Shown: piece by piece, positions 8,506 through 53,895 of the stretch | How positions within the stretch are numbered: the stretch's first letter is position 1 | Layout of the letters: the number at the start of each line of letters is the position of its first letter | The notes under the pieces: generated by a model | Databases searched by the model: none | What the model was told of the DNA's origin: nothing | The model's input: the letters and a program-made list of their open reading frames with translations, nothing else | Made by a program: the position numbers and the translations under genes | From: Patescibacteria group bacterium | GTDB taxonomy: Bacteria; Patescibacteriota; Minisyncoccia; Phycocordibacterales; UBA9973 | NCBI GenBank assembly: GCA_040384365.1 | Contig: JAZKJK010000015.1 | Span: 1,093 to 63,489, forward strand | Reading direction: 5' to 3' | DNA length: 62,397 bases

Positions 8506-8534
8506 AAAATGATTGTATAGTATTGTTATTCTTA

Positions 8535-14458: not shown

Positions 14459-14503
14459 AAAACGCTTCTTCTAATTTTCTCTTCGAGATGGTACAATTCT
14501 ACA

Positions 14504-16453: not shown

Positions 16454-16490
16454 GTTATAAAGTTCATAAAGTAGAAAGTTATAAAGCAAA

Positions 16491-31050: not shown

Positions 31051-33129
31051 ATGATAAGAAAAATTACGCTTTTAGTTTTGTCGAAACTTATTAATGGCGT
31101 AGAAAATTATAAAAAATTTATGAGTAATTTATTAAAATCAAAATTCCTTCTTGGAGTTATGACTTTGGCAATTATGTTCGTTGGTGCAGTTGCAGTTGCA
31201 ACTACAGCTTCAGCTGATTGTTCAATCACAACTACATTAAGATTAGGTTCTGCAGGCGCTGAAGTTGCTTGTCTTCAGTCAAAGCTTAATGGTGGTCTTG
31301 TCGCTGATGGTAAATTCGGTCCTATGACTGAAGCTGCTGTCAAAGTTTGGCAAGCTGCTAAAGGCTTAACAGCTGACGGCATAGTTGGTCCTATTTCAAG
31401 ATCAGCTTTGGTAGCTAGTGGCTCAGTTTCAGGAAATTTCCCAGCAGGATGTCAATCAGCTGCGGGATACAGTCCAACAACTGGTGCTAAATGCGATAGT
31501 GGTCCTTCAGCTGGTCTTCCAGCAGGTTGTTCATCAACATCTGGCTTTAGTGTAACAACTGGTCAGTCATGTTCTGGTACTACAGCCCCTTCTGGTCCTC
31601 TAGCGGGAACAGCAGGAACAGTAACATACACTCAATTATCACAATACACCAACGAAAAGGTGGGAGCGGGTGTAACTGATGTTAAAGTAGCTGGATTTGA
31701 ACTTGAAGCTTCAGACGGAGATGTCTCCCTTAGGTCATTCAAGTTAACTTTCAGTTCAACTGGAAACGCAGCAGCGGATTCTGATCGTCTCATAGACTAT
31801 CTTGATTCAGTATCTATCTGGCAAGGCTCTACAGAGGTCGGATCAGCTGATGCAGCAGATTTCACTAGAGACAGTGCTGGTGTTTATTCTAAAGTTGTAA
31901 CTGTTTCTAACGCTATCGTTAGAGATGGTGATGTAGAGAAATTCTATATTTCCGTAGATGCAGCAACTAACATAGACTCAGCAGATATTGACTCAGATTC
32001 TTGGGGTGTTGATCCTATTAACGTTAGATATGAAGATGGAGGTGGTGTAGTATCAACAGATACTATTACACAGACTGAAATCCCAATGTCTTTCGTTACT
32101 TCAGCGTCAGCAACTGACACTGAACTCAAGCTAACTGTTGATTCAACATTAAAGGCTGGTGTTCAGACTGTAAATGTTACTTCTGATACAAATGATGTTC
32201 TTCTTTTGAAGGGTACTTTGGAGATAGAAGGCGAATCTGATGTTTGGGTAGATGAGATTCCATTCTTGTTTACTACAAACGCGACTAACGCGGATGCTGT
32301 CTCAAACACTGTATACCTCACTATTGATGGAACAGAGTTTTCAGAATCTATGGGTTCTGCAGTAGGAACTACAGAGACTATTACCTTTAACGAGCTTAAT
32401 AAGACTCTTGCACCTGGTAAATACGTATTTACTGTTACAGCAGATGTGAATGATATTGAGGCAGACGTATTTGACGAAGGCGATTACTTGTTAGCAGAAT
32501 TAACTGCTACTACTCGTGCTTCTGTCGTCGCTCTTAACACAGAGGGCGGAGATCAGTTGACGGACGGTACAGAAATGACTGGTGTTGCTGCAGGCACTAT
32601 CCAGTACTTCTATTCAAAATCACCAAAAGTTGAAGTTTTGTCCAGTTACGGTAGTAATTGTGAAAGTAGTATCAAAGCTAATGATAATGGTTCAAGTGCT
32701 CCATCTTCTGCAACAGCTAAGTTGTGCTTAAAGATTACAGCAAATGGAGGAACTATCTATCTTAACGGTAATGATGAAACTACTCAAGCTAAAGAATTCT
32801 TTGGCATAGCTATTGACGGAGGTGATGCAAGTTCAACTATCGCTAACAATGGAGGATATTCATTTACACCATCAGGAACATATACTGTGACTGATGATGC
32901 TACTGATAATGAATACTACACTCTAAATGAAGGTGATGTAATGTATGTCGGTATAGAATCTACGCTTGTAGAAGGAGTTGGTTCAGCTGCTATCCTTGTA
33001 GGTATGAAGGGAGATGAAATCCTCTTCGGTACTGCAAGCACATCTGATACCACTCGTTCAGCTAATACGTTGAACTTCACAGCTCTACTTGATATCCTAA
33101 AGACAGGAAAGGTAACATTGGATAGCTAA
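31051..33129 (+). CDS. secreted cell-wall-anchored surface protein (PG_binding_1 domain, two C-x13-C motifs, acidic Ser/Thr-rich beta region)
   Basis: GGAG lies 8 nt upstream of the start. The signal/TM segment is LLGVMTLAIMFVGAVAVATTASA. The PG-binding pattern is GSAGAEVACLQSKLN...DGKFGPMTEAAVKVWQ. The two motifs are CQSAAGYSPTTGAKC and CSSTSGFSVTTGQSC. Confidence 0.75.
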   Translation: MIRKITLLVLSKLINGVENYKKFMSNLLKSKFLLGVMTLAIMFVGAVAVATTASADCSITTTLRLGSAGAEVACLQSKLNGGLVADGKFGPMTEAAVKVWQAAKGLTADGIVGPISRSALVASGSVSGNFPAGCQSAAGYSPTTGAKCDSGPSAGLPAGCSSTSGFSVTTGQSCSGTTAPSGPLAGTAGTVTYTQLSQYTNEKVGAGVTDVKVAGFELEASDGDVSLRSFKLTFSSTGNAAADSDRLIDYLDSVSIWQGSTEVGSADAADFTRDSAGVYSKVVTVSNAIVRDGDVEKFYISVDAATNIDSADIDSDSWGVDPINVRYEDGGGVVSTDTITQTEIPMSFVTSASATDTELKLTVDSTLKAGVQTVNVTSDTNDVLLLKGTLEIEGESDVWVDEIPFLFTTNATNADAVSNTVYLTIDGTEFSESMGSAVGTTETITFNELNKTLAPGKYVFTVTADVNDIEADVFDEGDYLLAELTATTRASVVALNTEGGDQLTDGTEMTGVAAGTIQYFYSKSPKVEVLSSYGSNCESSIKANDNGSSAPSSATAKLCLKITANGGTIYLNGNDETTQAKEFFGIAIDGGDASSTIANNGGYSFTPSGTYTVTDDATDNEYYTLNEGDVMYVGIESTLVEGVGSAAILVGMKGDEILFGTASTSDTTRSANTLNFTALLDILKTGKVTLDS

Positions 33130-33191
33130 TCCGATTAACCTGACTTCTTTAGACTCTGGCCAATACGCCTTAAAAAGTATTACAAAACAAC

Positions 33192-33222
33192 CCCCGACTC
33201 TTACGAGAGTCCGGGGTTTTTT
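33192..33222 (+). terminator. rho-independent terminator after the surface-protein gene
   Basis: The arm ccccgactc pairs with gagt(c)cgggg and is followed by T6. Confidence 0.6.
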
Positions 33223-33252
33223 GTTTGTCTAAAATGTTGTATAATACCCTGC

Positions 33253-35067
33253 ATGAGCTCAGTTATCAGGAAAATAATATATGCTTCAGTATTTATTTTG
33301 CCGTTTATAATTTTCCCGCACACCACATATTCAATGGTATTTTCGAAATCTCTTTTTTTAGAAGGAGCCACTCTCGTTCTTGGCGCTCTTTGGATAATTG
33401 GCAAGCTTAACAGCAAAGAAAAGCAAAAAGAAAGCGAAAAAATACCAAAGAATATAGTTTTTTTTGTTTTTGGGCTTTATGCGCTTTTCCTTCTGGTTTC
33501 AGGTTTAAATAGCCTTGTTCCTGGGCTTTCATTCTGGGGCAGTCTCGATCATGGAACTGGGGTGGTTTTTATGTTGTGTTTACTTACCTTTTCTTTAATT
33601 ACCAGTTCTGTGTTTAAAACACTCGATGATTGGTATAAATTATTTACAGTTTTTGTTTTTTCAGGCATTTTCTTTAATTTAGGAACTTTTTTGACTATGG
33701 TTGGTATTCATTTTTCTAAAATCTACAATCTTAATGCCTTAAGTGGTTTTCTTATAGGTAACTCATCTTGGGCGGGCGTTTATCTTTCTTTTGTGTTTTT
33801 TATAGGGCTTGGTCTCATGCTTGCTTCAAACGTAAAAAGTCAGAGGATCATCGGTTTCTTGGCGCTCGTGACTGCCTTCCTTAATCCTAGCTTGACTGGT
33901 TTTATCCCCCAAGCTTCGGATGCTTCTTTTAGATTTATCGGCTTAGCTCAAACAGCTTCTTATTCCCTTATCGCAAGTTTTGGTCTCTTTGTGCTTTATA
34001 TTTTTTTTAGAAAAATAAATTCTATAAAATGGAGAAAAGTATTTATAGGATCTTTTTTATCTTTATCGATCATTAGTTTGGTGTTGGTTTCAACTTTAGG
34101 CTGGGGGCATATACGTCAGTTTGTCGCCGAAAAAGCTGGACCGAACAGATTTGTTTTTTGGGAGATTTCAATTTCAGCCCTCAAAGAGCGTCCGATATTA
34201 GGATGGGGAGGGGATAGTTATCAATATGCTTATGCAAAATATTTTGATCCGATTGTCCTTACTCCTGGTTATGCTCCAGAATATTGGGTAGACCGAGCTC
34301 ACAATATTTATTTTGATGAACTTGTTTCCGGCGGAATTACAGGCTTTCTCCTCCTCATGTTTTTATACGGAATTCTTTTATTTGGTTTCATTCGAAATGC
34401 AGTTAGGTTCAAAGAGAAGGAGGGGTTACTATATATGGCGTTATTTTCTGGCGTCGTAGGATTTCTCATCCAAGGATTGATGATATTTCAGATAAATATG
34501 GGTTGGTTCGTTATAGCTATTCTTCTTGCCTTTGCCGCCCGTTTTTGTTTTGAAGATAAAAATATAATTAGTGCTGATGCTGAAAAAAATAATAGAAAAA
34601 AAAATAGAGATGAAGACCACACCTTTAGGAATTTATTCGCAGTTGTTGTTGTAATAATTTTTGGATTTTTATTTAATTATTTAATTATCAAACCATATAG
34701 AGTTGATAATGGATTGGCTAGATTCCCAGTAATGAGATATGAAGCGAGAATGCAGTTTTACAATGAAATAGATAAAGCTTATGTGGGGAATACTACAGAT
34801 CTAGGTAATGCTTTTACCCGGTATCATATTAGACTTCGAAAAATTTTAGAAAAAGGATTAAAGGAAAAGGAAAAGAAATTAATGATAGAAGAAATCAAAG
34901 AAATAAATCGTATTTTAGAGAATAGTTTACAAAAACAAGAATACAGGGAATTGAAAACTTTAATGGCGACAACCGGGTTTTATTCTGTGATCATAGCTTT
35001 GACTGACGGAGAGGAAAGACAGGGGTATTACGATCAGAGTCTATTTTATGTGGAATATATCGCTTAA
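33253..35067 (+). CDS. O-antigen ligase/oligosaccharyltransferase-like membrane protein (Wzy_C family) with C-terminal soluble helical region
   Basis: It has about 12 TM segments. The periplasmic-loop signature is WGGDSYQY...DRAHNIYFDELVSGGITGF. Confidence 0.7.
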   Translation: MSSVIRKIIYASVFILPFIIFPHTTYSMVFSKSLFLEGATLVLGALWIIGKLNSKEKQKESEKIPKNIVFFVFGLYALFLLVSGLNSLVPGLSFWGSLDHGTGVVFMLCLLTFSLITSSVFKTLDDWYKLFTVFVFSGIFFNLGTFLTMVGIHFSKIYNLNALSGFLIGNSSWAGVYLSFVFFIGLGLMLASNVKSQRIIGFLALVTAFLNPSLTGFIPQASDASFRFIGLAQTASYSLIASFGLFVLYIFFRKINSIKWRKVFIGSFLSLSIISLVLVSTLGWGHIRQFVAEKAGPNRFVFWEISISALKERPILGWGGDSYQYAYAKYFDPIVLTPGYAPEYWVDRAHNIYFDELVSGGITGFLLLMFLYGILLFGFIRNAVRFKEKEGLLYMALFSGVVGFLIQGLMIFQINMGWFVIAILLAFAARFCFEDKNIISADAEKNNRKKNRDEDHTFRNLFAVVVVIIFGFLFNYLIIKPYRVDNGLARFPVMRYEARMQFYNEIDKAYVGNTTDLGNAFTRYHIRLRKILEKGLKEKEKKLMIEEIKEINRILENSLQKQEYRELKTLMATTGFYSVIIALTDGEERQGYYDQSLFYVEYIA

Positions 35068-35132
35068 ATACGGAGAAGAAGGTCTTGGTCTTTTTAATTT
35101 AAATGAAACTACGGTAATAAAATAAAAAATCT

Positions 35133-36038
35133 ATGGAGAAAATAATCGTTACAGGCGGTGCAGGGTTTATAGGGTCACACATTGTGGATCAGCTTATTTC
35201 TGATGGTTATGAGGTTCATGTTGTGGATAATCTATCAGCGGGGAAAAAAGAAAATGTGAATCCAAAAGCGATTTTTCACAATGTAGATATTCGTGATTAT
35301 GATAAACTGTTGCCCATATTTGAAGGTGTAAAATATGTTTTTCATGAAGCGGCTTTTCCTCAAGTCCAATATTCAATAGAGAATCCCGTTGAAACTAATG
35401 AAATAAATGTCGGGGGCACATTAAATGTGCTAGAGGTCTCGAGGGCAAACAAGGTTAGAAGAATAATTTTCGCTTCTTCTAGCGCCGTGTATGGCAATCA
35501 AGAAATTTTACCGATAACCGAAAACATGCAAACCAATCCATTGTCTCCCTATGGCGCTCAGAAATATATTGGTGAAGTTTATATGAAACTCTATGCTGAA
35601 ATTTACGGGCTAGAAACTGTTTGTCTTAGATATTTCAATGTTTACGGACCGAGACAGAGTGCGGGCGGAGCTTATGCTTCCGTGATTCCTAAATTTATAG
35701 AATTTCGCCAAAAAAATGAACCGCTTTCTATTACCGGAGACGGAGAACAGACTAGGGATTTTGTAAACATCAAAGATGTTGTTGAAGCTAATATTTTAGC
35801 CATGAAAGGAGATAAAGTAGGGAGGGGTGAGGTGTTGAATATTGGCGGAAGTTGTCAATATTCCATCAACTACATAGCAAAATTAGTAGGAGGAAATGTT
35901 TCTTATATTTCTCCTCGCATAGAACCTCGTAATACAGAGGCCAGCGTAGATAAAGCTAAGAAGTTTCTAAATTGGGGACCGCATGTTATTCTAGAAGAAG
36001 GTATAAAAGAATTAAAGAAATATAACAATATAAATTAA
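35133..36038 (+). CDS. NAD-dependent sugar-nucleotide 4-epimerase (GalE/WbpP-like SDR)
   Basis: Present are GGAGFIGSH, the catalytic YGAQK, and the general pattern of extended SDRs. Confidence 0.85.
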   Translation: MEKIIVTGGAGFIGSHIVDQLISDGYEVHVVDNLSAGKKENVNPKAIFHNVDIRDYDKLLPIFEGVKYVFHEAAFPQVQYSIENPVETNEINVGGTLNVLEVSRANKVRRIIFASSSAVYGNQEILPITENMQTNPLSPYGAQKYIGEVYMKLYAEIYGLETVCLRYFNVYGPRQSAGGAYASVIPKFIEFRQKNEPLSITGDGEQTRDFVNIKDVVEANILAMKGDKVGRGEVLNIGGSCQYSINYIAKLVGGNVSYISPRIEPRNTEASVDKAKKFLNWGPHVILEEGIKELKKYNNIN

Positions 36039-36041
36039 TAT

Positions 36042-37010
36042 ATGGTAAATATCAAAAAAGTGTTAGTCTGCGGCGCCGGTGGATTTATTGGTAGCCACTT
36101 GGTAAAAAAATTAAAGACTGAAGGATATTGGGTGAGAGGCGTTGACCTCAAGAATCCAGATTTTAGCCCGAGCGTTGCTGATGAATTTATCATTGGTGAT
36201 CTGCGCGATCAGTCAGTTTGTAAGAAAGTTCTAGACCAAGCTTTTGATGAAGTATATCAATTAGCGGCAGATATGGGCGGGGCGGGGTATATTTTTACGG
36301 GGGAACATGATGCGGACATAATGCATAATTCAGCTCTCATTAATATCAATATTACTGATTTAGCGGTAAAAAATAAAGTTGGTAAAATATTTTATTCTTC
36401 TTCTGCATGTATTTATCCCAAACATAACCAAGAAGATCCTGATAATCCAAAATGCTCTGAAGAATCAGCTCACCCAGCAAATCCTGATTCTGAGTATGGT
36501 TGGGAAAAACTTTTTAGTGAACATTTATACCTTAGTTATAATCGGAATTATAATTTAAATGTTCGGATTGCTAGATTTCATAATATTTTTGGAGTAGAGG
36601 GTCCTTATAAAGGTGGAAAAGAAAAGGCTCCTGCTGCGATTTGCAGAAAAGTAGCCGAAGCAAAATCCGGTGGCGAAATAGAAATTTGGGGTGATGGCAA
36701 GCAAACCCGCTCATTTTTATATGTAGATGAATGCTTGGAGGGGATACGAAGGCTTATGGATTCAGATTTTATTGGTCCGGTTAATATTGGCTCAGATGAA
36801 ATGGTTACAATTGATAGACTTGCGGAGATGGCTATTGAGTCTTCTAGTAAAAAGATAACATTAAAGCATATTGATGGGCCCGTTGGAGTAAGAGGAAGAA
36901 ATTCTGACAATAAATTGATAAAAGAAAAATTAAATTGGGCCCCATCTCAGGCCCTTACAGAAGGTGTTCGAATGACCTATGAATGGATAAATAATCAATT
37001 AAAAAAATAA
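36042..37010 (+). CDS. NAD-dependent epimerase, GDP-mannose 3,5-epimerase-like
   Basis: GAGGFIGSH is present. From memory, QLAADMGGAGYIFTGEHDADIMHNSALININ resembles the GME signature region. It also has YGWEK and RFHNIFG. Confidence 0.6.
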   Translation: MVNIKKVLVCGAGGFIGSHLVKKLKTEGYWVRGVDLKNPDFSPSVADEFIIGDLRDQSVCKKVLDQAFDEVYQLAADMGGAGYIFTGEHDADIMHNSALININITDLAVKNKVGKIFYSSSACIYPKHNQEDPDNPKCSEESAHPANPDSEYGWEKLFSEHLYLSYNRNYNLNVRIARFHNIFGVEGPYKGGKEKAPAAICRKVAEAKSGGEIEIWGDGKQTRSFLYVDECLEGIRRLMDSDFIGPVNIGSDEMVTIDRLAEMAIESSSKKITLKHIDGPVGVRGRNSDNKLIKEKLNWAPSQALTEGVRMTYEWINNQLKK

Positions 37011-37020
37011 AGATATTTAT

Positions 37021-37557
37021 ATGCCAGAAAATAAAAGATTAACCAATGATTTATATGCTTTAGTTTACGGACAATATGTGCCTCGCCTTTGTGTAGATTT
37101 AGTTGTGATTGGTCCAGAAGATACATTTAGAGTTGCAATATCGACCAATTTGGACTCAGTATTTGATGTGCAAGGACCTAACGGTATAATTTTAATTCAG
37201 AGAGATATTCCGCCAGAAATCGGTAGCTGGCATTTACCGGGGGGAACAGTTCGAAAAGGTGAGACTCTTGAAGTAGCCGCAAAAAGAATAATAAAATCTG
37301 AAACAGGAATTGAAGTAGAGATTTTGGATAGGATTGGTTCACTTGAGTTTTTAAACGAGGAACAAGAAGTTGAATTAAATGGAAAAAAAGAAAAAATCAA
37401 TATACATTCTGTTTCTGTAATTTTATTAGCAAAAGCAAAAACGAATGTACTTACCGGAAGTGATGATGGAAAAAATGTTGAATGGTTCAAAATTGCTCCT
37501 ACTATTGGCCATACAATACATATTCCTTATTTGATAAAGCATGGATTTCTTAAATAA
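37021..37557 (+). CDS. NUDIX hydrolase (sugar-nucleotide hydrolase-like)
   Basis: The Nudix box is GGTVRKGETLEVAAKRIIKSETGIEVE. The gene is embedded in the sugar-nucleotide cluster. Confidence 0.7.
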   Translation: MPENKRLTNDLYALVYGQYVPRLCVDLVVIGPEDTFRVAISTNLDSVFDVQGPNGIILIQRDIPPEIGSWHLPGGTVRKGETLEVAAKRIIKSETGIEVEILDRIGSLEFLNEEQEVELNGKKEKINIHSVSVILLAKAKTNVLTGSDDGKNVEWFKIAPTIGHTIHIPYLIKHGFLK

Positions 37558-37566
37558 TAAATAAAT

Positions 37567-38457
37567 ATGATTATTGTAAGACTTTCAGGGGGAATGGGGA
37601 ATCAAATGTTTCAATATGCTTTAGGGCGTGCTCTTTCTATTAAACACAACGTTTCACTTAAGCTTGATATAACATTTCTTAATCATCGGATTAAAATGCC
37701 GAATTTTTTACGACCTAATTTTTCTTTTCGCAATTTTGATCTGGATGTTTTTAATATACAAGCAGAAATTGCTAAACCTTACGAGATTTCGTTTTGGAAT
37801 CGACCAATTTTGTTTGGTCCCATTATGCTTATAATTGATGCTTTTTTACGCAAGTTGGCATTTTTGCCTGGCTGGGAAAAGAAATATTCTTTCAATAATA
37901 AAGCTTTGCAATTTGGGCCCAATACATACCTTGAGGGGTTTTGGCAAAGTGAAAAATATTTTTTAAATATTGCCTCTACTATCAGAAAAGATTTTTTTTT
38001 AAAAAAGCCAATTTCTGAGGCTACTAAAAAAATTCAAGACGACATTAAAAATACAAATTCAATCTGTGTTCACCTAAGACGTGCACATGGAGGTGGAGAT
38101 TTCCATTCCAAGTATGATATTACTTATTATGAAAAAGGCATAAATTATATTGCTGAGAAAAAAAAGATTGAAAAGATTTATGTATTTTCTGATGACATAG
38201 AATGGTGTAAAGAAAATATTAAATTTAATATTCCTACTGTTTTTGTCGGTAGTGATTCTGCTGGTGTGAAAGGAGAGGGACATCTGTATTTAATGAGTCT
38301 TTGTCAGAATTTTGTTATATCCAATAGCACTTTTTCTTGGTGGGGAGCATGGCTTTCTGATTATGCAAGCAAAATTGTTGTTTGTCCGAAGCAGTGGTTT
38401 GGGGACGCTTCAATAGACACAAGTGATTTAATTCCCAACGAATGGGTAAAAATATGA
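37567..38457 (+). CDS. GT11-family alpha-1,2-fucosyltransferase-like glycosyltransferase
   Basis: The GT11 landmarks are LSGGMGNQMFQYALGRAL, HLRR..GGDF and ISNSTFSWWGAWL. Confidence 0.8.
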   Translation: MIIVRLSGGMGNQMFQYALGRALSIKHNVSLKLDITFLNHRIKMPNFLRPNFSFRNFDLDVFNIQAEIAKPYEISFWNRPILFGPIMLIIDAFLRKLAFLPGWEKKYSFNNKALQFGPNTYLEGFWQSEKYFLNIASTIRKDFFLKKPISEATKKIQDDIKNTNSICVHLRRAHGGGDFHSKYDITYYEKGINYIAEKKKIEKIYVFSDDIEWCKENIKFNIPTVFVGSDSAGVKGEGHLYLMSLCQNFVISNSTFSWWGAWLSDYASKIVVCPKQWFGDASIDTSDLIPNEWVKI

Positions 38458-40213: not shown

Positions 40214-40214
40214 A

Positions 40215-44337: not shown

Positions 44338-44346
44338 GGGATTAGT

Positions 44347-45057: not shown

Positions 45058-45077
45058 TTCTCTTATTTTTTTTATAA

Positions 45078-46028
45078 CTAGGGTTTAGTATTCTCATACC
45101 ATTCTATGGTTTTCCTCATTCCTTCTTCAAAGGTTACCGAAGGTTTCCATCCGAGCTCTCTGGTGATCTTGGAATGATCCATCGCATAGCGCATATCGTG
45201 TCCTTTACGATCTTCTACAAAAGTTTTCAGAATTTTAGGCTTGTTTAATAATCCGAGTATAGTATCTGCAATTTCTAATCCGTTTTTTTCTGAATCACCG
45301 CCGATGCAATAAGTTTCACCGATTTTACCTTTATGCAGAATCAAATCAATCGCTTCGCAATGATCTACCACATATAGATAATCACGAACAGCCTTGCCTG
45401 CACCATAGATAGGAAGCGATTTATTTTCAAGAGCATTGGTGATAAAAAGCGGAATTATTTTTTCGGGGAACTGGAAGGGTCCGTAATTATTTGTACAATT
45501 TGAAATCGTGGCAGGGAAATTGTATGTTTCGATAAAGGCTCGCACAAGGTGGTCTGATCCGGCTTTGGAAGCAGAGTAGGGAGATCTGGGCGCGTATGGA
45601 GTTTTTTCGGAAAATTTTTCTCCAGTTTTGTCGAGTGGCAAGCTGCCAAAGACTTCGTCTGTAGAAACATGATGGAATCTTTTTATTTCAAGTTCCTGTG
45701 CGACTTCAAGTAGAACCTCTGTTCCTATCACATTTGTTTGGATAAAAATTGCCGGTCCTGAGATTGAACGATCCACATGAGATTCAGCGGCAAAGTGAAC
45801 TACCATATCACATCTAGTCATAGCTTTTCTCACCATATCTATATCACAAATATCACCGTGAATAAATGTGTAATTAGGATTTTTCCCTACCTCTTTTAAA
45901 TTTTCTAAATTACACGCGTAAGTCAATTTATCTAAATTGACTATTTTATAATCAGGATATTTCTTCATCATATAGATGATGAAGTTTGATCCTATAAAAC
46001 CTGCTCCGCCTGTTACTAAAAGTTTCAT
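45078..46028 (-). CDS. rfbB: dTDP-glucose 4,6-dehydratase
   Basis: Present are MKLLVTGGAGFIGSNF, HFAAESHVDRS and YSASKAGSDHLV. The start was moved to the Met that does not overlap rfbC. Confidence 0.93.
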   Translation of the reverse strand: MKLLVTGGAGFIGSNFIIYMMKKYPDYKIVNLDKLTYACNLENLKEVGKNPNYTFIHGDICDIDMVRKAMTRCDMVVHFAAESHVDRSISGPAIFIQTNVIGTEVLLEVAQELEIKRFHHVSTDEVFGSLPLDKTGEKFSEKTPYAPRSPYSASKAGSDHLVRAFIETYNFPATISNCTNNYGPFQFPEKIIPLFITNALENKSLPIYGAGKAVRDYLYVVDHCEAIDLILHKGKIGETYCIGGDSEKNGLEIADTILGLLNKPKILKTFVEDRKGHDMRYAMDHSKITRELGWKPSVTFEEGMRKTIEWYENTKP

Positions 46029-46038
46029 AATAAATTGA

Positions 46039-46584
46039 TTAAAAATCAATGTCGCTATCTTTTAAAGTTGGTGCATTGGCGTCTCTATCTATTAGGATAG
46101 GATTATCAATACCCCAATCTATGCCTATATCTGGGTCGTTGAAACAAATAAATCTTTCAGACTCTTTATTGTAGTGATTGTCTATATTGTAATGAACCTC
46201 AACATTGTCAGTAAGCGATAATATACCATGAGCAAACCCCCTTGGGATAAAAAGCTGTATTTTATTTTCTTCAGTTAATTCTACAGCTAACCATTTTTTG
46301 TAAGTCGGTGAATTTTTTCTCAAATCTACTACTACATCCAAAACCGCCCCCTTGGTGCATTTAATAAGTTTAGATTGAGCAAAGGGATGAATTTGACAGT
46401 GTAATCCACGAAGAGTTCCCTTTTTTTTCGTAAAAGAATGGTTGCTCTGAACAAAATTTGTGTCAATTCCAGCCTCAGCTAGTTTCTTTTTGTGATAAGA
46501 TTCAAAAAACCATCCGCGGGTATCTTCGAAGATATCTGGCTCAATGATTAAAACATCTTTTATTTTTGTTTGGGTAATTGTCAT
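46039..46584 (-). CDS. rfbC: dTDP-4-dehydrorhamnose 3,5-epimerase
   Basis: The cupin pattern includes FEDTRGWFFESY, RGLHCQ and PRGFAHG. Confidence 0.93.
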   Translation of the reverse strand: MTITQTKIKDVLIIEPDIFEDTRGWFFESYHKKKLAEAGIDTNFVQSNHSFTKKKGTLRGLHCQIHPFAQSKLIKCTKGAVLDVVVDLRKNSPTYKKWLAVELTEENKIQLFIPRGFAHGILSLTDNVEVHYNIDNHYNKESERFICFNDPDIGIDWGIDNPILIDRDANAPTLKDSDIDF

Positions 46585-46592
46585 CTAGTTGT

Positions 46593-47492
46593 TTATATCA
46601 ATTTTCTCGGAGAATTCTCTTCAGCCACTCGCATGAGATATTGTCCATACTGAGATTTTTCATATTGTTTTGCAATTTTAAGCAGATCAGCGTGTTTTAT
46701 CCAACCATTCCTATAAGCGATTTCTTCTAAAGCGGCAATTTTAGTATTTTGTCTCTCCTCAATGATTTTTACAAAATCATTGGCATTCACCATCGAGCTG
46801 ATGGTGCCAGTATCAAGCCAAGCAAATCCACGCCCCAGGAGTTTGACATCTAAATCGCCTGCGTCCAAATATAATTTGTTTACATCAGTTATTTCAAGTT
46901 CTCCACGATGGCTCGGTTTGATCTTTTTTGCAAAGTTAATGACTCTGTTGTCATAAAAATAAAGACCAGTAACGGCGTAATTCGATTTCGGCTTTTTCGG
47001 TTTTTCTTCTATTGAAGTAACTTTCCCTTTTTTGTTGAACCCAACAACACCGAACCTTTCTGGATCATTAACATAATATCCAAATATGGTTGCACCATTT
47101 TTGTTTTTTACAGCTTCTCTTAAGATTTTTGTTAATCCATTGCCGTAGAAAATATTGTCGCCCAAGATCATTACTACATTACTTTTACCTATGAATTTTT
47201 CGCCGATTATGAAAGCCTGAGCCAAGCCGTCAGGGGAAGGCTGTTCGGCATATGACAGCTCTAATCCAAAATTTTTACCATCCCCTAAAAGTTTCTTGAA
47301 ATTCGGCAAATCAGCTGGTGTCGAGATGATCAGAATTTCTCTAATGCCTGCCAACATTAAAATAGACAGCGGATAAAAAATCATCGGCTTGTCATGGATG
47401 GGCAACAATTGCTTGCTCATTGCTTTCGTTAGGGGGTAGAGTCTGGTTCCGCTACCACCTGCCAATATGATGCCTTTTGTGGTATTTTTCAT
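46593..47492 (-). CDS. rfbA: glucose-1-phosphate thymidylyltransferase
   Basis: Present are [16 protein letters not shown], the ILGDNIFYG region, and the ELEITDVN region. Confidence 0.95.
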
Positions 47493-47669
47493 AAAATATG
47501 TGTGTTGTTTCTAAATTTTTCTAAAGATTAATTTGCTTAATAATAGATAAAAGGTATTATTAAATAATATTAATTATATGTGTTAGTATAACATTTAATC
47601 GAATGTATTTCAATCCTCAAATGTATTTTGATTGTGTCTAATTTGGGTATTATATGTGGTATAGAAAGT

Positions 47670-48518
47670 ATGAAAAATAATGGACTTAAAATTGGATTTA
47701 TTGGACAAGGATATGTTGGCAAACATTGCGCAGATGATTTCGAGCGTCGAGGCTATAAGGTTGTTCGTTACTCTAAAGAAAAATTATATTATTCCAATAA
47801 GGAAAAAATTAAGAGTTGTGATATAGTGTTTATCGCAGTTCCAACTCCCACAATTTGTGGTACTTATGATGCCAGTATTCTATATAAAGTTATACCTCTT
47901 ATTGGAAAGAATAAAATTATTGTTTTGAAATCAACTTGTTGTTTTGGTCTTTCGCGTGTTTTGCAAAAGAAGTTCAAAGATTATATTATTGTGCATTCTC
48001 CAGAATTTTTAAGTGAGGTTACTGCAGCAGAGGATGCCGGGAATCCTTTTTTCAATATTGTGGGGATAGACCAAAGTTCAAAAAAACACAAAGATGTGGC
48101 CCAGTTTCTTCATTCCATTCTTCCAAAGGCGCCTTCCTCTTTCACTGTATCATACGAAGATGCTGAATTGATAAAATATGCTCATAATACTTCAGCTTAT
48201 GTGCAGATAGTTTTTTCAAACCTTATGTATGATTTTGCGAAAAAATTGGGCGCAAATTGGGAAAATATAGCAAAAGCGATGAAATCAGACCCATTTATGG
48301 CAAGTAAATATTGGGAACCCATACATAAGGGTGGTCGAGGGGCAGGAGGACATTGTTTCATTAAGGATTTCGCTATTCTTTCCAGTATATATAAGAAAAT
48401 CATGAATGATCCCCTAGGTGCCCAAGTTTTATTGGATTTAGAGAAAAAAAATATTGAACTTTTGCAAAAAAGCGAGAAAGACACGGAATTACTTAAAGGT
48501 GTTTATTGTGATTTGTAG
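47670..48518 (+). CDS. UDP-glucose/GDP-mannose dehydrogenase-family protein lacking the C-terminal UDP-binding domain
   Basis: IGFIGQGYVGK forms a Rossmann motif, and the catalytic-Cys region is GGHCFIKD. Only about 45 aa follow the catalytic Cys. The first ATG is at 47670; the track start at 47628 is TTG. Confidence 0.6.
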   Translation: MKNNGLKIGFIGQGYVGKHCADDFERRGYKVVRYSKEKLYYSNKEKIKSCDIVFIAVPTPTICGTYDASILYKVIPLIGKNKIIVLKSTCCFGLSRVLQKKFKDYIIVHSPEFLSEVTAAEDAGNPFFNIVGIDQSSKKHKDVAQFLHSILPKAPSSFTVSYEDAELIKYAHNTSAYVQIVFSNLMYDFAKKLGANWENIAKAMKSDPFMASKYWEPIHKGGRGAGGHCFIKDFAILSSIYKKIMNDPLGAQVLLDLEKKNIELLQKSEKDTELLKGVYCDL

Positions 48519-48578
48519 AAAAAATAATATAAAAGATTTAGTTACTTTTTTCTAACCATTCTACGAAGAAAATAAATT

Positions 48579-49529
48579 ATGGAAAATAATTTTAAAAGAA
48601 AGATCTTAATAACTGGCGGAGCAGGGTTTATCCCTAGTTGCCTTGCGGAACGACTCATAAAAGATAATAAAAATTTTGTAGTAGTAGTGGATAATTTTTT
48701 GACTGGTCATAAAAAAAATTTACCTTCTTCATTTTATAAAAACTGGAAATTTGTAAAATGTGATGTAAATAAATACAAAGATATTTCTAGAATAATGTTA
48801 GCTTATAATTTTGACTTTGTATTTCACTATGCTGCTATGGTGGGGGTAAAGAGAACATTAAAAAATCCACTCATGGTTCTTGATGATTTAGATGGAATAA
48901 AAAATATTTTGGAACTTTCCAAGGATACTGGAGTGCAAAGATTGTTTTTCTCTTCTTCTTCTGAGGTTTATGGTGAATCAGTAGAATTTCCTCAAAATGA
49001 GGAGACTACCCCTCTGAACTCTCAATTACCTTATGCTATTGTTAAAAATGTAGGAGAGGCATTCTTGCAAGCATTTAAAAAAGAATGTAATGTAAATTAC
49101 ACTATTTTTCGTTTCTTTAATACATATGGACCAAAACAAAGTATGGATTTTGTAATGTCAAAATTTATTTCTTTAGCCTTAAAAAATAAAAACATTACCA
49201 TTTATGGTGATGGAAAACAAACTAGAACTTTTTGTTATATAGATGATAACCTTGATGCAACAATCAATGCTTTTATGCAAAATAAATATATAAATAAAAT
49301 AGTAAACATAGGTAATGATAACGAAATAACAATTCTTGAATTGGCTAAGAAAGTTATTAGAATCACTAAGTCAAAATCACAGATTATCCACTTACCACCA
49401 TTACCTAAGGGTGATGTAACACGTAGAAAACCTGATATCTCTAAAATGAAGAACTTATTAGGAAGAAAATTGATACCCCTAGAAAAGGGAATTAAAAAAG
49501 TAATTGAATCATGGAATTTATATCATTGA
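48579..49529 (+). CDS. NAD-dependent epimerase/dehydratase, UDP-glucuronate decarboxylase (UXS)-like
   Basis: Present are GGAGFIPS, SSSEVYGE, YAIVK, and RFFNTYGP...GDGKQTRTFCYIDD. Confidence 0.75.
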   Translation: MENNFKRKILITGGAGFIPSCLAERLIKDNKNFVVVVDNFLTGHKKNLPSSFYKNWKFVKCDVNKYKDISRIMLAYNFDFVFHYAAMVGVKRTLKNPLMVLDDLDGIKNILELSKDTGVQRLFFSSSSEVYGESVEFPQNEETTPLNSQLPYAIVKNVGEAFLQAFKKECNVNYTIFRFFNTYGPKQSMDFVMSKFISLALKNKNITIYGDGKQTRTFCYIDDNLDATINAFMQNKYINKIVNIGNDNEITILELAKKVIRITKSKSQIIHLPPLPKGDVTRRKPDISKMKNLLGRKLIPLEKGIKKVIESWNLYH

Positions 49530-49534
49530 TTAAT

Positions 49535-50461
49535 TTAATCAATCTTGTATATTTCAAATTGTCTTGGTACTTCAATTACTTCTAGTAATTTTTCTCCTGC
49601 CCACATACACTTTTTTGGGTATTTCCAACTATTGTAGTATTTTACAATCCTGTCTACACTTTCTTCGGTAAAAAATCTTTTAGAAGAATGATTCCACAAT
49701 TTTTTCTTTATGTCTTTGCGTACAAAAGATAGGTGATGCATTTGACACTCTCTTCTTGAAAAAATACGGTATCGTAATTCATTTCCTTTTACATTATTAG
49801 TCTTTCTTGTGGGATCAATAGGTACAATACATGGGATATTGTATACATACTTTGTGTTGGGCATTATTTTTTCGATAGTGGCTACGTATTGTCGTTCGGG
49901 ATATTTTAATTGATAAATTGAGTCATAGTAATATTGTAAATGTTGGCAGTAACCAGTACCATAATCTCCATTTTCCATTTCCTTTTTCAAAAATTGAAAT
50001 TGTTTTTCTGTGTAAAATTCATCTGCATCAATTGTCATATGATAATTGCAACCATTTTGCCTACATAATTCTAGCCCGATATTTCTTTTCTTGGTTTCAT
50101 TAAGCGAAGCATTCTCTCCAGCTGTATTGGCGATGTTTGGTTCATATAGATAAAGTTTATTCACTAATCCATCTCTTACAAGTTTATTTAAAAAATCTTC
50201 CATTCCCGCACTACAGGGTTCCCCATGATTGGATATTTTTTGCCAAATGATACATACAAAATCTACATTATTTCTAATGCTTCGTATTGAATATTCAAGC
50301 AATTCTTCGCCGTCGAATAAATTATACGCCACACCAAGTCGCATAGTATAGTATTTATTTTTTTTACGCAGGATTTTGCCTAATTGTTGTTTAAGTGTAA
50401 TTATTTTAATCCAAAATACACGAAAGAATTTTAGGACTTTATTTTTTATCAGGTCGATCAT
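49535..50461 (-). CDS. putative glycosyltransferase (unassigned family)
   Basis: This 308-aa ORF sits in the glycan cluster and has a DxD-like IDADEF. The start codon is uncertain. Confidence 0.4.
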   Translation of the reverse strand: MIDLIKNKVLKFFRVFWIKIITLKQQLGKILRKKNKYYTMRLGVAYNLFDGEELLEYSIRSIRNNVDFVCIIWQKISNHGEPCSAGMEDFLNKLVRDGLVNKLYLYEPNIANTAGENASLNETKKRNIGLELCRQNGCNYHMTIDADEFYTEKQFQFLKKEMENGDYGTGYCQHLQYYYDSIYQLKYPERQYVATIEKIMPNTKYVYNIPCIVPIDPTRKTNNVKGNELRYRIFSRRECQMHHLSFVRKDIKKKLWNHSSKRFFTEESVDRIVKYYNSWKYPKKCMWAGEKLLEVIEVPRQFEIYKID

Positions 50462-50469
50462 TTTGATTT

Positions 50470-51918
50470 TTAATGACTTTTTACTAACATGGATATTTCA
50501 TTGAGTGTTTGTTCTTTTAGGATTTTGAGTGAACAAATATATACAATTATTGCGAGCAAGATGTTTATGATGAAATTTATTCCGGTTAAATTTAAGAGCA
50601 ATATTGAAACTGTCATAATAATACTTGAAATACATATTTTCCAAAGTTTTGGTATGACACTGAAAGGAATAAATTTTTTTAGCCTTTTCCAATTGGTGCC
50701 CATAATTACGAGTTCTGCTATTACTGTGGATGCTGCGGCTCCAATTGCTCCATATTGTGGTATAAACCAGAAATTTAGAAATATGTTTAAAAAGACTCCA
50801 AATGCAGTCGTGGTAATAAAAGATTTTTGGAGATTTTTCGAAAAAATTAGATTAGTTAGAAAAATATTTGGAAAAGATGCGAGAATCGAAATCATAAGGA
50901 TAGCAAATACTGATGCTACGGCAATGTACGACTGTCCTAGTATAAGTAAAGTTATCTGGTTACTAAATATTATTCCTCCAATTGTTACGGGTATTCCTAT
51001 TGCTAGGATTATTGTCATAACTTTCTCAAAGATATTGCCGAGTTTGCTTGTGTCATCTGCATTTTTTGACAGTATTGGGAATATTGAAATCGCAATAAAA
51101 CCTGGAACGATTGACAAAAAAGAAATTAGACGTTGAGCCGTCGTATATAAACCGACATCAGTCGCAGACCGCATTTGTCCCAACATAATAGTGTCTAAAC
51201 TAAATAAAAATCCAAACAAACCGATTATTGCCACAGGCCAAGAAAAATTACAAATTATTTTTAAATTTTCTTTTGAAAATTTAAACTCAATTCCCTTAAA
51301 TTCTCCTCTGATTGACCAGACTATATATATAGTCGAGAATATACTTCCTAGCATATAAGCCATTGCGAGAGAGATGGGGTTGGCATTATTAAGTAATAAA
51401 ATCAACCCAAAAATTGTGATAAGTAAATTCATGAGTATCTTTGAAAATCCCTCTATCTCCATTTTTTGTAATGAGCGATTTATGGACATTGCAAATTCAC
51501 GTATTGACTCAAATAAATAGAAAGTTGCAAAAATGAGAATTGCACCAAAACTTAATTTTATTTTTCCTAGATCTGGAGCGAGTAACAACGCTGTAGAAAA
51601 AAATATTATTAAAAGAGTTAGTCTAATCATAATGGATGTAGCAAGATATTTATGTTTGTTGGTGTTATCTTTGGACATTTCTTTTGTAATAAATGTATTT
51701 ATTCCAAAGTCTCCCAAGATGAAGAAAAGAGAAACAAAAGCTAATCCATATGAAAATACCCCCCATTCCTCAATTCCGAGTTTGCGAGTAGCAAATATGA
51801 TAATTACTAATTTAAGAATTCGCCCTATGCCTTCTCCTAAAAAAAGCCAAAATGTATTTTTTATCACCGTCTGCTTATTGCTTGTATTTTTTAAAAAAAA
51901 GTTCTTTATTTTTTCCAT
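50470..51918 (-). CDS. Wzx-type oligosaccharide flippase (MOP superfamily)
   Basis: It has about 12-14 TM segments. The N-terminal region typical of polysaccharide-biosynthesis flippases is NTFWLFLGEGIGRILKL. Confidence 0.8.
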   Translation of the reverse strand: MEKIKNFFLKNTSNKQTVIKNTFWLFLGEGIGRILKLVIIIFATRKLGIEEWGVFSYGLAFVSLFFILGDFGINTFITKEMSKDNTNKHKYLATSIMIRLTLLIIFFSTALLLAPDLGKIKLSFGAILIFATFYLFESIREFAMSINRSLQKMEIEGFSKILMNLLITIFGLILLLNNANPISLAMAYMLGSIFSTIYIVWSIRGEFKGIEFKFSKENLKIICNFSWPVAIIGLFGFLFSLDTIMLGQMRSATDVGLYTTAQRLISFLSIVPGFIAISIFPILSKNADDTSKLGNIFEKVMTIILAIGIPVTIGGIIFSNQITLLILGQSYIAVASVFAILMISILASFPNIFLTNLIFSKNLQKSFITTTAFGVFLNIFLNFWFIPQYGAIGAAASTVIAELVIMGTNWKRLKKFIPFSVIPKLWKICISSIIMTVSILLLNLTGINFIINILLAIIVYICSLKILKEQTLNEISMLVKSH

Positions 51919-51930
51919 ATCTTACTCTGT

Positions 51931-53265
51931 TTAATAAGTAAATATCTTTGCTATTGTTTTTAGGATAATAATTATATCAAAAAAAATGTTTCTATTTTTA
52001 ATATAATAAAAGTCATATTTCAGTTTTTCTCTAGCATCTTCGGTCGAAGAACCATATTTATAATTTACTTGCGCCCAACCTGTCAGCCCCCCTTTTACAG
52101 TATGTCTCAGATCATAATATAGTATGTCTTGTTTCAAATTGCGTATGAATTCCGGTCTTTCGGGTCGTGGTCCGACAAAAGAAATATCACCCTTCAAAAT
52201 ATTTATAAGTTGCGGAATTTCATCCAAGTGTGTTTCTCTAATAAATTTTCCCACAGGCGTAATTCTAGAATCCTTTTTATTATCTTTTGTCCAGACGGCG
52301 CCGTTTTTCTCGGAATTTAGATACATCGATCTAAATTTATAAATTGTGAATTCTGTGTCATTGAGACTGATTCTTTGATGTTTGAAAAGAGCGGGACCTT
52401 TTGATGTGAGTTTCACGATGATGGCCGTCAGCACAAAAACGGGTGACAATAAGATAATCAATGCGAAAGACAAGGCAATGTCGAGAATTCTCTTCATAAA
52501 ATTGAAAATCGTTTTGTTTTCGCTGATATATTCAATGATTTCGTTTTTCCCCAATATCTCGGTTGGCATTTTTTGAAACATTTCTTCGTAGAAATTGTTT
52601 ATGGTGTAAACAAAAATTCCTTTTTTTACTAGAGCATAAATTTTATTGAACTCTGCTCCCTCATCTCCGCTGATTACGACGATATCTGGATCAAGAGCGA
52701 TGATCTCATTCAAATCCAGCATGTCCGATTCCCTAATTATCTCATACCCGATATTTTGATTGCGGCGCAACTCTTCAACGAGACCGTCCCTTTTTTTACT
52801 TATAATTATTATTTTTCTATTTATTTTTCTATGCGTAAAATATCTTTTTATCAATATTCTCAAATAAAAATCAAGAATTCCAAATATGCCGGTAAATATG
52901 ACCAAGTTTGTTTTTGGGGTTAGTTTGAAAAAATCTCCGAATATATAAAAAATTAGAACTGAAATGGAAAATGAAATCATCAAACTTTTTGCAAAAGAAT
53001 TTGCGAACTCCGTAGTATTTTTATTGAATCTGAAAGAATATAGGTTGAATATGAAGAAAATCAGGATGAATAGCAGAGTTATGATAGAAAATGGAATGAA
53101 ATGGTCCTTTAGTTGCGCCGAAAAATTTTCACTGCCATATCTTATAAGAATCATTAAAAAAAGCGCGCTGAACGCTACCGCCAAATCAACGATAAAAATA
53201 AAGAACATCTTGAATTGTATGAGTAAACCTTTCATTTTCATGTCCTGCATGCTTTTGTCGGGCAT
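51931..53265 (-). CDS. polyprenyl-phosphate glycosyl-1-phosphate transferase (WbaP/PglC-type priming enzyme)
   Basis: The C-terminal bacterial sugar transferase domain carries DIALSFALIILLSPVF, KFRSM, DEIPQLINILKGDISFVGPRPERP and KYDFYY. Confidence 0.9.
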   Translation of the reverse strand: MPDKSMQDMKMKGLLIQFKMFFIFIVDLAVAFSALFLMILIRYGSENFSAQLKDHFIPFSIITLLFILIFFIFNLYSFRFNKNTTEFANSFAKSLMISFSISVLIFYIFGDFFKLTPKTNLVIFTGIFGILDFYLRILIKRYFTHRKINRKIIIISKKRDGLVEELRRNQNIGYEIIRESDMLDLNEIIALDPDIVVISGDEGAEFNKIYALVKKGIFVYTINNFYEEMFQKMPTEILGKNEIIEYISENKTIFNFMKRILDIALSFALIILLSPVFVLTAIIVKLTSKGPALFKHQRISLNDTEFTIYKFRSMYLNSEKNGAVWTKDNKKDSRITPVGKFIRETHLDEIPQLINILKGDISFVGPRPERPEFIRNLKQDILYYDLRHTVKGGLTGWAQVNYKYGSSTEDAREKLKYDFYYIKNRNIFFDIIIILKTIAKIFTY

Positions 53266-53404
53266 GCTTCAGTATCCAGTTAATCTACCACAAAAACGGA
53301 TTTTTTACAGCTTTTTTAATTTGTGACCTAATTTTATAGGTTTATTTTTCCCATAAGGTGTATAATTCACCTATTAAGAGTAATTGTTTCCACGGCGATT
53401 TATT

Positions 53405-53863: not shown

Positions 53864-53895
53864 AAATATAATTCGCAGAATCTTGTGATATACTC

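Follow-up and report, generated by a model that had tools for sequence, protein, structure and literature searches.

A surface-protein gene beside a Wzy_C-family ligase gene and a glycan island in Patescibacteria: a candidate locus for surface-protein O-glycosylation

In a Patescibacteria genome (assembly GCA_040384365.1, contig JAZKJK010000015.1), a stretch of 62,397 nucleotides, here called the window, carries a gene for a peptidoglycan (PG)-binding surface protein, a gene for a Wzy_C-family, O-antigen-ligase-like membrane protein, and an island of genes for assembling a lipid-linked glycan. The original prediction, which held that the ligase-like enzyme transfers a short oligosaccharide en bloc to protein or to a wall polymer, was made from the sequence, and all the open reading frames (ORFs) that it named are present where it placed them. 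Dedicated O-glycosylation of the adjacent surface protein by the Wzy_C enzyme is the best reading of the evidence below, and we advance it tentatively. Gene assignments come from Pfam, NCBIfam and PDB sequence searches, and structures from AlphaFold2 (AF2) models and Foldseek. Features of the module are as follows, with the strand in brackets and lengths in amino acids (aa).

29763-30560 (+): putative winged-helix (DeoR-like) regulator, 265 aa, the conserved left neighbour of the module
31120-33129 (+): PG-binding surface protein, 669 aa, in an ORF that opens at 31051; PG_binding_1 match, E 1.3e-9
31450-31572 (+): two Cys-bracketed, Ser/Thr-rich mini-loops, CQSAAGYSPTTGAKC and CSSTSGFSVTTGQSC, from a motif scan, in the low-confidence linker of the surface protein
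33189-33222 (+): intrinsic terminator after the surface-protein gene, a canonical hairpin with a T-run
33253-35067 (+): Wzy_C-family (PF04932) glycan ligase, 604 aa, the proposed O-oligosaccharyltransferase (O-OTase)
35048-35132 (+): uncertain 3' end of the ligase gene, with a 59-bp gap at 35060/35061 relative to loci L001, L013 and L014

A conserved and co-varying module

Is the pairing of the two genes peculiar to this genome? Comparison with six metagenome loci and 21 GTDB species representatives indicates that it is not. The surface-protein gene lies next to that of a large Wzy_C protein in all six metagenome loci and in 20 of the 21 representatives, the contig of the 21st ending just upstream. 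Every uncut locus has the order RecA, small protein, FtsK, regulator, surface protein and one to three large Wzy_C proteins, followed by the glycan island and finally by the Wzx flippase and the priming phosphoglycosyltransferase (PGT); this order holds down to 23% ligase identity. The regulator is upstream of the surface-protein gene in all complete loci. Its window copy has no Pfam match, and its counterparts in L006 and L034 match HTH_DeoR. The nearest homologues of both ligase and surface protein are in metagenome-assembled genomes of Candidatus Nomurabacteria, Paceibacterota and Minisyncoccia, and the window cassette is ascribed to a cell of Candidatus Nomurabacteria.

The module recurs on another backbone in the distant locus L034, where it adjoins GroEL/ES and not FtsK/RecA. 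There an HTH_DeoR protein is accompanied by a PG_binding_1 protein of 1149 aa, which shares 26% identity over its body with the window surface protein, by a Wzy_C protein with a tetratricopeptide repeat (TPR) tail that is 25% identical to the window ligase, by a small Wzy_C protein and by a short UDP-glucose dehydrogenase (UGDH).

The two proteins also diverge together. Normalised similarities to the window copies, calculated for 16 non-redundant but phylogenetically related loci, are strongly correlated between surface protein and ligase (r=0.93; partial r=0.91 given FtsK). The divergence of the regulator tracks the FtsK backbone (rs=0.96). In L030 and L032, RecA is 86-90% identical to that of the window, the surface protein is 30-33% identical and the ligase is of another type. 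The co-variation is with the whole protein, of which the immunoglobulin (Ig)-like body is the largest part; the PG_binding_1 domain itself stays conserved. Since the loci are related and the genes linked, these statistics demonstrate a co-inherited or co-exchanged cassette and not an enzyme-substrate pair.

In L006 (7967-13902), L009 (10001-13964) and L010 (8028-11878), the surface-protein gene is followed by a tandem array of large Wzy_C paralogues, two or three in number, which are TPR-tailed and differ in type. In L006 and L009, small secreted proteins (PTL_trimer, Por_Secre_tail) are encoded between the surface-protein gene and the Wzy_C paralogues.

The ligase-like Wzy_C protein

Assignment of the 33253-35067 product to the Wzy_C/O-antigen-ligase family, first proposed from the sequence, is borne out by a score of 47.5 bits against PF04932 (cut-off 31.7; E 2e-12; aa 236-368). 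The AF2 model (predicted local distance difference test score [pLDDT] 81.5, predicted template modelling score 0.86) has 12 transmembrane (TM) helices; TM9 and TM10 are joined by a large loop on the outer side (aa 282-351). TM12 is followed by a basic disordered loop, a TM13 and a six-helix repeat domain (about aa 456-604), which the positive-inside rule places outside the cell, on the side of the catalytic loop. The only significant structural match in Foldseek was WaaL (7TPG; E 9.6e-6, TMt 0.63); FtsW and RodA, which are SEDS proteins, came next. It was the fold search alone that found WaaL: PDB sequence searches, with the single protein or with a profile, returned noise and did not reach it.

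Six residues (R299, P314, G317, G319, D347 and H350) show no variation among 34 family members, nor in a set of 13 sequences that extends to very distant relatives. The pattern H[NSQ]x9Gxx[GTY], a motif described in the literature, occurs at residue 350. When the family profile is aligned with E. coli WaaL using hhalign, R299 falls on R288 and H350 on H338, although the alignment is weak (E 0.41); these WaaL residues correspond to R298 and H349 of PglL (Schulz et al., PMC3643930). The ligase spacing R-x14-P-xx-G-x-G-x30-H equals that given by the published numbering of Neisseria meningitidis PglL (R298, P313, G316, G318, H349; PMC3643930), numbers and not sequences being compared. G316 and G318 are reported to be conserved in PglLs and not in WaaL (PMC3643930), and E. 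coli WaaL has P303, F306 and S308 at the P-xx-G-x-G positions. The PglL-like spacing is suggestive only as regards membership of the PglL class. Two further candidate markers were rejected: G-x-G as a means of telling the large ligase from the small Wzy_C proteins of relatives, because the small protein has P-x-G-x-G...HN too, and the nearly invariant R253 as an equivalent of WaaL R215, because it lies in a predicted cytoplasmic loop.

The paceibacterial ligase family comprises 45 clusters at 36-75% identity; beyond it, nearly all relatives are Wzy_C proteins with a C-terminal TPR. Pfam TPR models match the C-terminal part of these more distant relatives and also the paralogue types, and the tail of the window ligase gives weak Fis1/TPR-like sequence matches with E above 1. 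A C-terminal TPR has been reported both for PglL and for WsfB, an O-OTase of S-layer protein (PMC2943079).

The end of the window ligase gene calls for caution. The 59-bp gap shifts the frame, so that the ORF stops at 35067 and a remnant of the conserved tail, ISLKYGEEGLGLFNL... (ISLKYGEEGL...), is left in the +1 frame; the shift costs the outer domain about 40 residues. The window sequence is present in one public run, a watershed metagenome (DNA), in which the Logan unitigs end at 35047 and restart at 35065. A 151-bp unitig covering 35065-35215 has a depth of 2, versus 6.7 and 9.4 in the longer flanking unitigs. Because the junction is uncovered and the neighbouring depth low, the gap may have arisen in assembly or may represent a minor allele. 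A genuine gap would mean that the window strain has a ligase with a shortened tail.

At the other end of the gene 6 nt separate a TATAAT (33241-33246) from the ATG, and a Shine-Dalgarno sequence is absent, which suggests a leaderless or near-leaderless ligase transcript.

The surface protein as candidate acceptor

The surface-protein gene had been placed at 31051-33129. The ORF is there and its product matches PG_binding_1, but the true start is the ATG at 31120 (MSNLLKSKF...), not 31051; relatives have a stop codon just upstream of the equivalent MS(K/N)LLKSKF start. The protein consists of a Sec-type signal peptide, a three-helix PG_binding_1 domain, a linker and some 500 residues of tandem Ig-like beta-sandwich domains, and is modelled by AF2 at pLDDT 79 (50-66 in the linker). 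Ser and Thr make up 23% of its residues, versus 8-14% in most proteins of the window. Foldseek matched the Ig-like domains of PrgB and AgI/II (Gram-positive adhesins) and integrin legs, with the low TM-scores to be expected for a multi-domain chain; no S-layer-specific domain was found in the protein. A query with the body alone retrieved 105 homologue clusters, essentially all of about 630-730 aa and with PG_binding_1.

The linker is the most variable part of the family. Across homologues it contains one to three Cys loops (P.GC.S..G[YF]S.TTG..C), CPNG..SNC loops, or poly-Thr or (Thr-Pro)n stretches. In the window the 15-residue loop (C.S..G[YF]S.TTG..C), which no Pfam model matches, is repeated right after PG_binding_1 both in this protein (31450-31572) and in a second surface protein (57466-57591):

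57121-59754 (+): second PG_binding_1 surface protein, 877 aa, 24% Ser+Thr, with the same Cys-bracketed loops

In ComP, the Ser that PglS modifies lies within a Cys-bracketed loop (PMC12645811). By analogy with this precedent the Cys-bracketed Ser/Thr loops are attractive candidate sites, and glycosylation of those at 31450-31572 is put forward as hypothetical. The second protein may be a further acceptor. Elsewhere in the window, outside the locus, a third candidate surface protein is encoded at 14504-16453: a DUF11 protein of 649 aa that has a membrane anchor at its N-terminus and a Ser+Thr content of 20%.

A hairpin and T-run equivalent to that of the window follows the surface-protein gene in 17 of the 17 loci tested. 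Such a pattern would suit a structural gene that is transcribed strongly and by itself, and it speaks against simple co-transcription with the ligase gene. With its secretion signal, PG-binding domain and many Ig-like domains, and with a strong terminator behind its gene, the product is consistent with an abundant surface protein.

The glycan island

The following genes lie beyond the ligase gene; glycosyltransferases (GTs) are named by family, and SDR denotes the short-chain dehydrogenase/reductase family.

35133-36038 (+): GalE-like 4-epimerase (PDB 4ZRM, 1.4e-61)
36042-37010 (+): homologue of GDP-mannose 3,5-epimerase (GME), a full-length SDR protein (PDB 2C59, 2.3e-97)
37021-37557 (+): NUDIX hydrolase
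from 37567 (+): GT11 of fucosyl/L-galactosyl type, firm Pfam match
38442-39284 (+): GT2, firm Pfam match
39281-40213 (-): GT17-like protein, firm GT Pfam match
40215-40997 (-): DUF3431 protein, putative GT
40994-42646 (-): two-domain DUF5672+GT11 protein, the GT11 match firm and DUF5672 a putative GT
42639-43271 (-): short RmlD-like protein, 210 aa (a length of 209-210 aa is conserved in relatives)
from 43261 (-): DegT aminotransferase
from 44347 (-): GT2, firm Pfam match
from 45078, 46039 and 46593 (-): RmlB, RmlC and RmlA, in a block extending to 47492
47628-48518 (+): short UGDH-like protein, 296 aa, without the C-terminal domain
48579-49529 (+): decarboxylase like UDP-xylose synthase (UXS); best PDB match UXS1, 2.8e-47
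49535-50461 (-): 308-aa protein, putative GT
50470-51918 (-): Wzx flippase (Polysacc_synt, 2.7e-37)
51931-53265 (-): priming polyprenyl-phosphate hexose-1-phosphate transferase (Bac_transf, 8.9e-65)
53384-54312 (+): cupin-type sugar-phosphate isomerase and small cytidylyltransferase (TagD/RfaE-like), GC 35-36%

The Wzx-dependent kit for lipid-linked assembly that was foreseen from the sequence is complete. The priming transferase, besides its Bac_transf match, scores 325.8 bits against TIGR03025 (cut-off 295.55), the flippase is clear, and RmlA, RmlB, RmlC, the DegT aminotransferase and several SDR proteins were found as predicted; the short RmlD-like gene had not been described. The count of "at least seven" GTs is less secure, since five are firm (37567, 38442, 39281, 40994 and 44347) and the other three are putative. 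In the UGDH/UXS pair the UXS half is well backed, but the UGDH is a short form. A counterpart in L034 (12633-13436; 267 aa, 35% identical), a distant lineage, indicates that this is a conserved short form and not a pseudogene. The pair (47628-49529) is an oppositely oriented two-gene insert with a GC content of 30.9%.

The GME homologue would imply an L-galactose route. No SDR, aminotransferase or GT match to NCBIfam reached its curated cut-off, and the sugar identities given below are therefore presumptive. The 308-aa ORF at 49535 had no Pfam or PDB match, and DUF3431 had no sequence relatives in PDB. DUF3431 and the GT17-like protein, separate in the window, are fused in L004 (16789-18396; 535 aa), which suggests that the role of DUF3431 is associated with glycosyltransferases; L010 encodes a larger GT17-like protein (645 aa) and, next to it, a separate DUF3431 protein.

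By eye the island had appeared AT-rich. It is, though moderately so: its genes (35133-53265) average 33.7% GC, compared with 39.7% for genes outside it (Mann-Whitney p=2e-5), in a Patescibacterium of low GC content (37%). Troughs of about 31% occur at 39.3-42.6 kb and 47.6-53.3 kb. The most AT-rich block is 39281-42646 (30.9% GC), and the lowest-GC gene is 40215-40997 (24.6%); depletion is milder in the rml/DegT block (36.9%). AT-rich stretches occur elsewhere in the window too, at 2-5 kb. The cupin isomerase/cytidylyltransferase pair, beyond which lies MetK on the plus strand, is a possible right edge of the island; a CTP_transf_like gene is found inside the island in L009.

Among relatives the interior of the island is a mosaic, which confirms the hypervariability predicted for it. 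The islands of L006 and L007 encode GT1/GT4 enzymes together with methyltransferases. The place that the GME homologue takes in the window, L004 and L017 is taken by a GMD/Fcl-like GDP-fucose module in L001, L010 and other loci. In L001 the GMD-like and Fcl-like pair (13966-16896) precedes the same GT11 gene as the window's epimerase does. The sugar-nucleotide modules thus seem to have been swapped while the transferase next to them was retained. The DegT and RmlD-like proteins of L004 are 87% and 80% identical to those of the window, above the 79% of FtsK. An extra, small Wzy_C protein of 444-450 aa is encoded between GT11 and GT2 in L001 (17882-19216), L004 (14632-15972), L012, L014 and L025; a small Wzy_C gene is also found in L034 (10671-12020). 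The small Wzy_C has no BLAST relationship to the large ligase, and no remnant of it was found at the GT11/GT2 junction of the window, where the two genes overlap. Across islands of differing sugar-gene content the large ligase family is kept, at 23-75% identity.

The original prediction also listed genes that were not seen, and this holds for the 56 window ORFs scanned: there was no second Wzy_C, Wzz, LCP, lipid A or Lpt gene among them. Likewise no Lpx, Kds or Lpt genes and no teichoic-acid or lipid-anchor genes were found in the window. Parcubacteria are reported to lack genes for lipid A and lipopolysaccharide (LPS), and a glycosylated surface layer has been suggested for them; envelope biogenesis in the candidate phyla radiation is described as unclear (PMC5220378).

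A proposed pathway

The pathway that we envisage has four steps; its direction, like the sugars, is presumed from the gene content. The hexose-1-phosphate transferase (51931-53265) would prime polyprenyl phosphate at the cytoplasmic face of the membrane, and five to eight GTs would extend the primer. The sugars would be supplied as dTDP-L-rhamnose or a dTDP-linked 4-amino-6-deoxyhexose, as GDP-L-galactose (from GME, with two GT11 domains to use it) and as UDP-hexoses, and possibly also as UDP-glucuronic acid (a uronate) or UDP-xylose. Wzx (50470-51918) would then flip the finished oligosaccharide to the outer face, where the Wzy_C enzyme (33253-35067) would move it en bloc onto hydroxyls of the PG-bound surface protein. 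As no polymerase or Wzz was found in the window, the unit transferred is probably a single short oligosaccharide. Arg299 and His350 of the outer loop would serve catalysis, and the outward-facing helical-repeat tail would hold the acceptor. The likeliest acceptor site would be the exposed Ser/Thr-rich linker, with the second surface protein (57121-59754) as a possible target. The choice of acceptor follows from analogy with the slg systems of Firmicutes and with O-OTases encoded next to their targets (PMC2943079, PMC3643930, PMC12645811).

Comparison with known systems

The slg loci, which encode WsaB/WsaP in Geobacillus stearothermophilus and WsfB/WsfP in Paenibacillus alvei, likewise belong to monoderm-like cells without LPS. 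They too build the glycan on a lipid carrier with a Bac_transf priming enzyme, GTs and rmlA-D sugars (PMC2943079), and a polytopic Wzy_C protein, with a C-terminal TPR in WsfB, makes the final transfer to an abundant surface protein. Their OTase gene can be transcribed alone, and a TagD-like cytidylyltransferase is encoded nearby (PMC2943079). The same gene set (Wzy_C, priming Bac_transf, rml genes and GTs) occurs together in the window locus. Unlike the slg proteins, the candidate acceptor of the window has PG_binding_1 and Ig-like domains and no SLH domain or known S-layer fold; its gene is immediately adjacent in essentially all relatives of the window, with one to three ligase paralogues in tandem; and export is via Wzx, whereas Geobacillus uses Wzm/Wzt. 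WsaB and WsfB were compared by description.

With PglL, PglS, TfpO and TfpM the window ligase shares the Wzy_C/WaaL-like core and the catalytic Arg and His, and with the published residue numbers of PglL the R...P-xx-G-x-G...H spacing; like these enzymes it would transfer a Wzx-flipped unit en bloc. Substrate-specific O-OTases, namely TfpO, TfpM, PglS and 21 of 31 PglL homologues, are encoded beside their targets (PMC3643930, PMC12645811), as the ligase is beside its candidate acceptor. It differs from PglL and PglS in lacking PglL_A and Wzy_C_2, in having a 13th TM helix and a helical tail, in a target that is not a pilin and in belonging to a cell that has no outer membrane to enclose a periplasm. 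Its family occurs in Patescibacteria alone, the distant relatives being TPR-tailed.

WaaL (of Cupriavidus metallidurans, 7TPG, and of E. coli K-12) is the best fold match, with 12 TM helices, the TM9-TM10 outer loop and Arg and His (R288 and H338) equivalent to those of the ligase. Unlike WaaL, the window ligase has the added TM13 and extracellular tail and no conserved counterpart of R215, and no lipid A-core acceptor is expected for it (PMC5220378).

Weighing the alternatives

The en-bloc transfer proposed at the outset draws support from the Wzx-dependent kit, the WaaL fold, the intact Arg and His and the conserved link to the surface protein. Several observations weigh against its extension to O-glycosylation of that protein. 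First, the protein nature of the acceptor is something that we infer. Second, the strong, conserved terminator between the two genes means that they form no obvious operon. Third, PglL_A (PF15864) and Wzy_C_2 (PF11846) were not matched in a scan of the ligase at E<=0.01 that reported Wzy_C alone, no NCBIfam model matches it, Pfam TPR models do not match its own tail, and its ORF may be truncated at the 3' end. TfpO and TfpM also lack the PglL_A and Wzy_C_2 signatures (PMC12645811). Fourth, no conserved Arg occurs in the outer loop at 210-232 and no conserved counterpart of the third functional Arg, WaaL R215 (PglL R224), was found, and P-x-G-x-G...HN, being shared with the small Wzy_C of relatives, marks no single function; WaaL, PglL and Wzy (ligase, O-OTase and polymerase) are in any case not separable by sequence (PMC3643930). 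Last, adjacency and co-variation could reflect physical linkage in a recombining surface-antigen cassette, or a surface protein that binds the glycan rather than carrying it.

The latter possibility belongs to the alternative that fares best, although we consider it somewhat unlikely: a ligase with a non-protein acceptor (wall polysaccharide, peptidoglycan or a membrane glycolipid), the surface protein binding the resulting secondary wall polymer. Some monoderm wall polysaccharides, for example the Lactococcus pellicle, are built outside the membrane by polytopic transferases. Binding of such a polymer through PG_binding_1 and the Cys-loop region would explain both linkage and co-variation, and in Firmicutes S-layer anchoring modules and wall-polymer machinery are swapped together (preprint 10.1101/2025.04.02.646754). 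The enzyme has the fold and the catalytic residues of WaaL, a ligase with a glycolipid acceptor; the missing PglL_A and Wzy_C_2 signatures and the separate terminator of the surface-protein gene fit as well, and some distant Wzy_C-TPR relatives have no surface-protein neighbour. Against this, the co-variation is with the whole, Ig-dominated protein and PG_binding_1 stays conserved; TPR-type tails are classically protein-binding and are reported for the O-OTases PglL and WsfB (PMC2943079); and the window has no LCP, teichoic-acid or lipid-anchor genes.

Could the 604-aa enzyme instead be the Wzy polymerase of a Wzx/Wzy capsule or exopolysaccharide, attachment or release being encoded elsewhere? 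The Wzy_C family includes polymerases, PGT, Wzx and GTs make up a classic Wzx/Wzy layout, this is the sole Wzy_C gene in the window, and the tandem paralogues of relatives could polymerise different units. We nevertheless think a polymerase distinctly unlikely. Unlike Wzy polymerases, the enzyme is encoded outside the GT block, next to a protein gene, and no Wzz/PCP co-polymerase accompanies it in the window. A polymerase, being specific for its repeat unit, would be expected to vary with the GT set, but this family persists through islands of differing content and co-varies with the surface protein, which is an indirect argument. The extra small Wzy_C of relatives, lying among GTs, is in the more typical polymerase position. 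Another Wzy_C-TPR relative is found beside a Wzm/Wzt ABC-transporter glycan cluster, in which no polymerase is needed. The closest solved fold is a ligase, though the structure library may simply contain no polymerase.

Least probable, in our view, is a general O-OTase acting on many secreted proteins (type IV pilins, other surface proteins) and next to the surface-protein gene merely by inherited synteny: enzymes of the PglL type have a general range, and their genes are often not linked to those of the targets (PMC12645811), the order RecA, FtsK, regulator, surface protein and ligase is largely inherited within one clade and the window encodes other Ser/Thr-rich surface proteins (14504-16453 and 57121-59754), but L034 has the module in another genomic setting, surface protein and ligase diverge jointly and not in step with the backbone, and this explanation overlaps with dedicated glycosylation, differing in substrate breadth alone.

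Other features of the window

To the left of the module are the genes of the conserved backbone:

from 25808 (-): RecA
from 26929 (-): small Ig-like membrane protein
from 27312 (-): FtsK

Two observations concern genes further away. In the isoleucyl-tRNA synthetase (8523-12107; 1194 aa), the two halves of the catalytic domain are separated by an entire histidine-phosphatase domain (His_Phos_1, aa 525-692), an unusual insertion that could affect or replace the editing region. At 3206-4294, a small HD-domain hydrolase and a small RelA/SpoT-type synthetase are encoded tail to tail, a minimal alarmone pair. An Rfam scan of the window found nothing, and no tRNAs were found in it.

Significance

The components and logic of the locus are known; its setting and architecture are new. 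The new elements are a Wzy_C family that is specific to Patescibacteria, lacks PglL_A and has TM13 and a tail of helical or TPR type, the fixed position of the ligase beside a PG_binding_1/Ig-like surface protein, with frequent tandem duplication, and the behaviour of surface protein, ligase and island as an exchangeable cassette. A literature search on Patescibacteria with O-antigen ligase, oligosaccharyltransferase and S-layer glycosylation, incomplete in coverage, found no description of the module.

Should the acceptor be a wall polymer, the locus would be a wall-polysaccharide cluster of the ordinary sort, notable for its neat organisation. Should the enzyme be a protein O-OTase, en-bloc O-glycosylation would extend to a major uncultivated radiation, through a new OTase family with a different acceptor logic, of interest for glyco-engineering, and the behaviour of surface protein, ligase and island as one exchangeable cassette would be explained. 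The locus provides a concrete, testable model, with one candidate acceptor, one candidate transferase, a defined sugar kit and clade-wide conservation.

A broader proposal, which we rate as unlikely, though deserving of mention, is that Paceibacteria have a portable cassette of envelope identity. This would consist of an abundant, S-layer-like PG-anchored protein, one to three dedicated TPR-tailed O-OTases of a family other than those of PglL, PglS, TfpO and TfpM, and a hypervariable island; Ser and Thr in disulfide-bracketed loops or poly-Thr linkers, located where the wall anchor gives way to the Ig-like body, would be glycosylated, and exchange of the whole cassette from one lineage to another would reset the surface antigen. 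For cells that are attached to a host and exposed to phages the outermost layer is central to their biology, and if this proposal is correct it is the surface antigen that would control how susceptible these episymbionts are to phages and how they attach to hosts.

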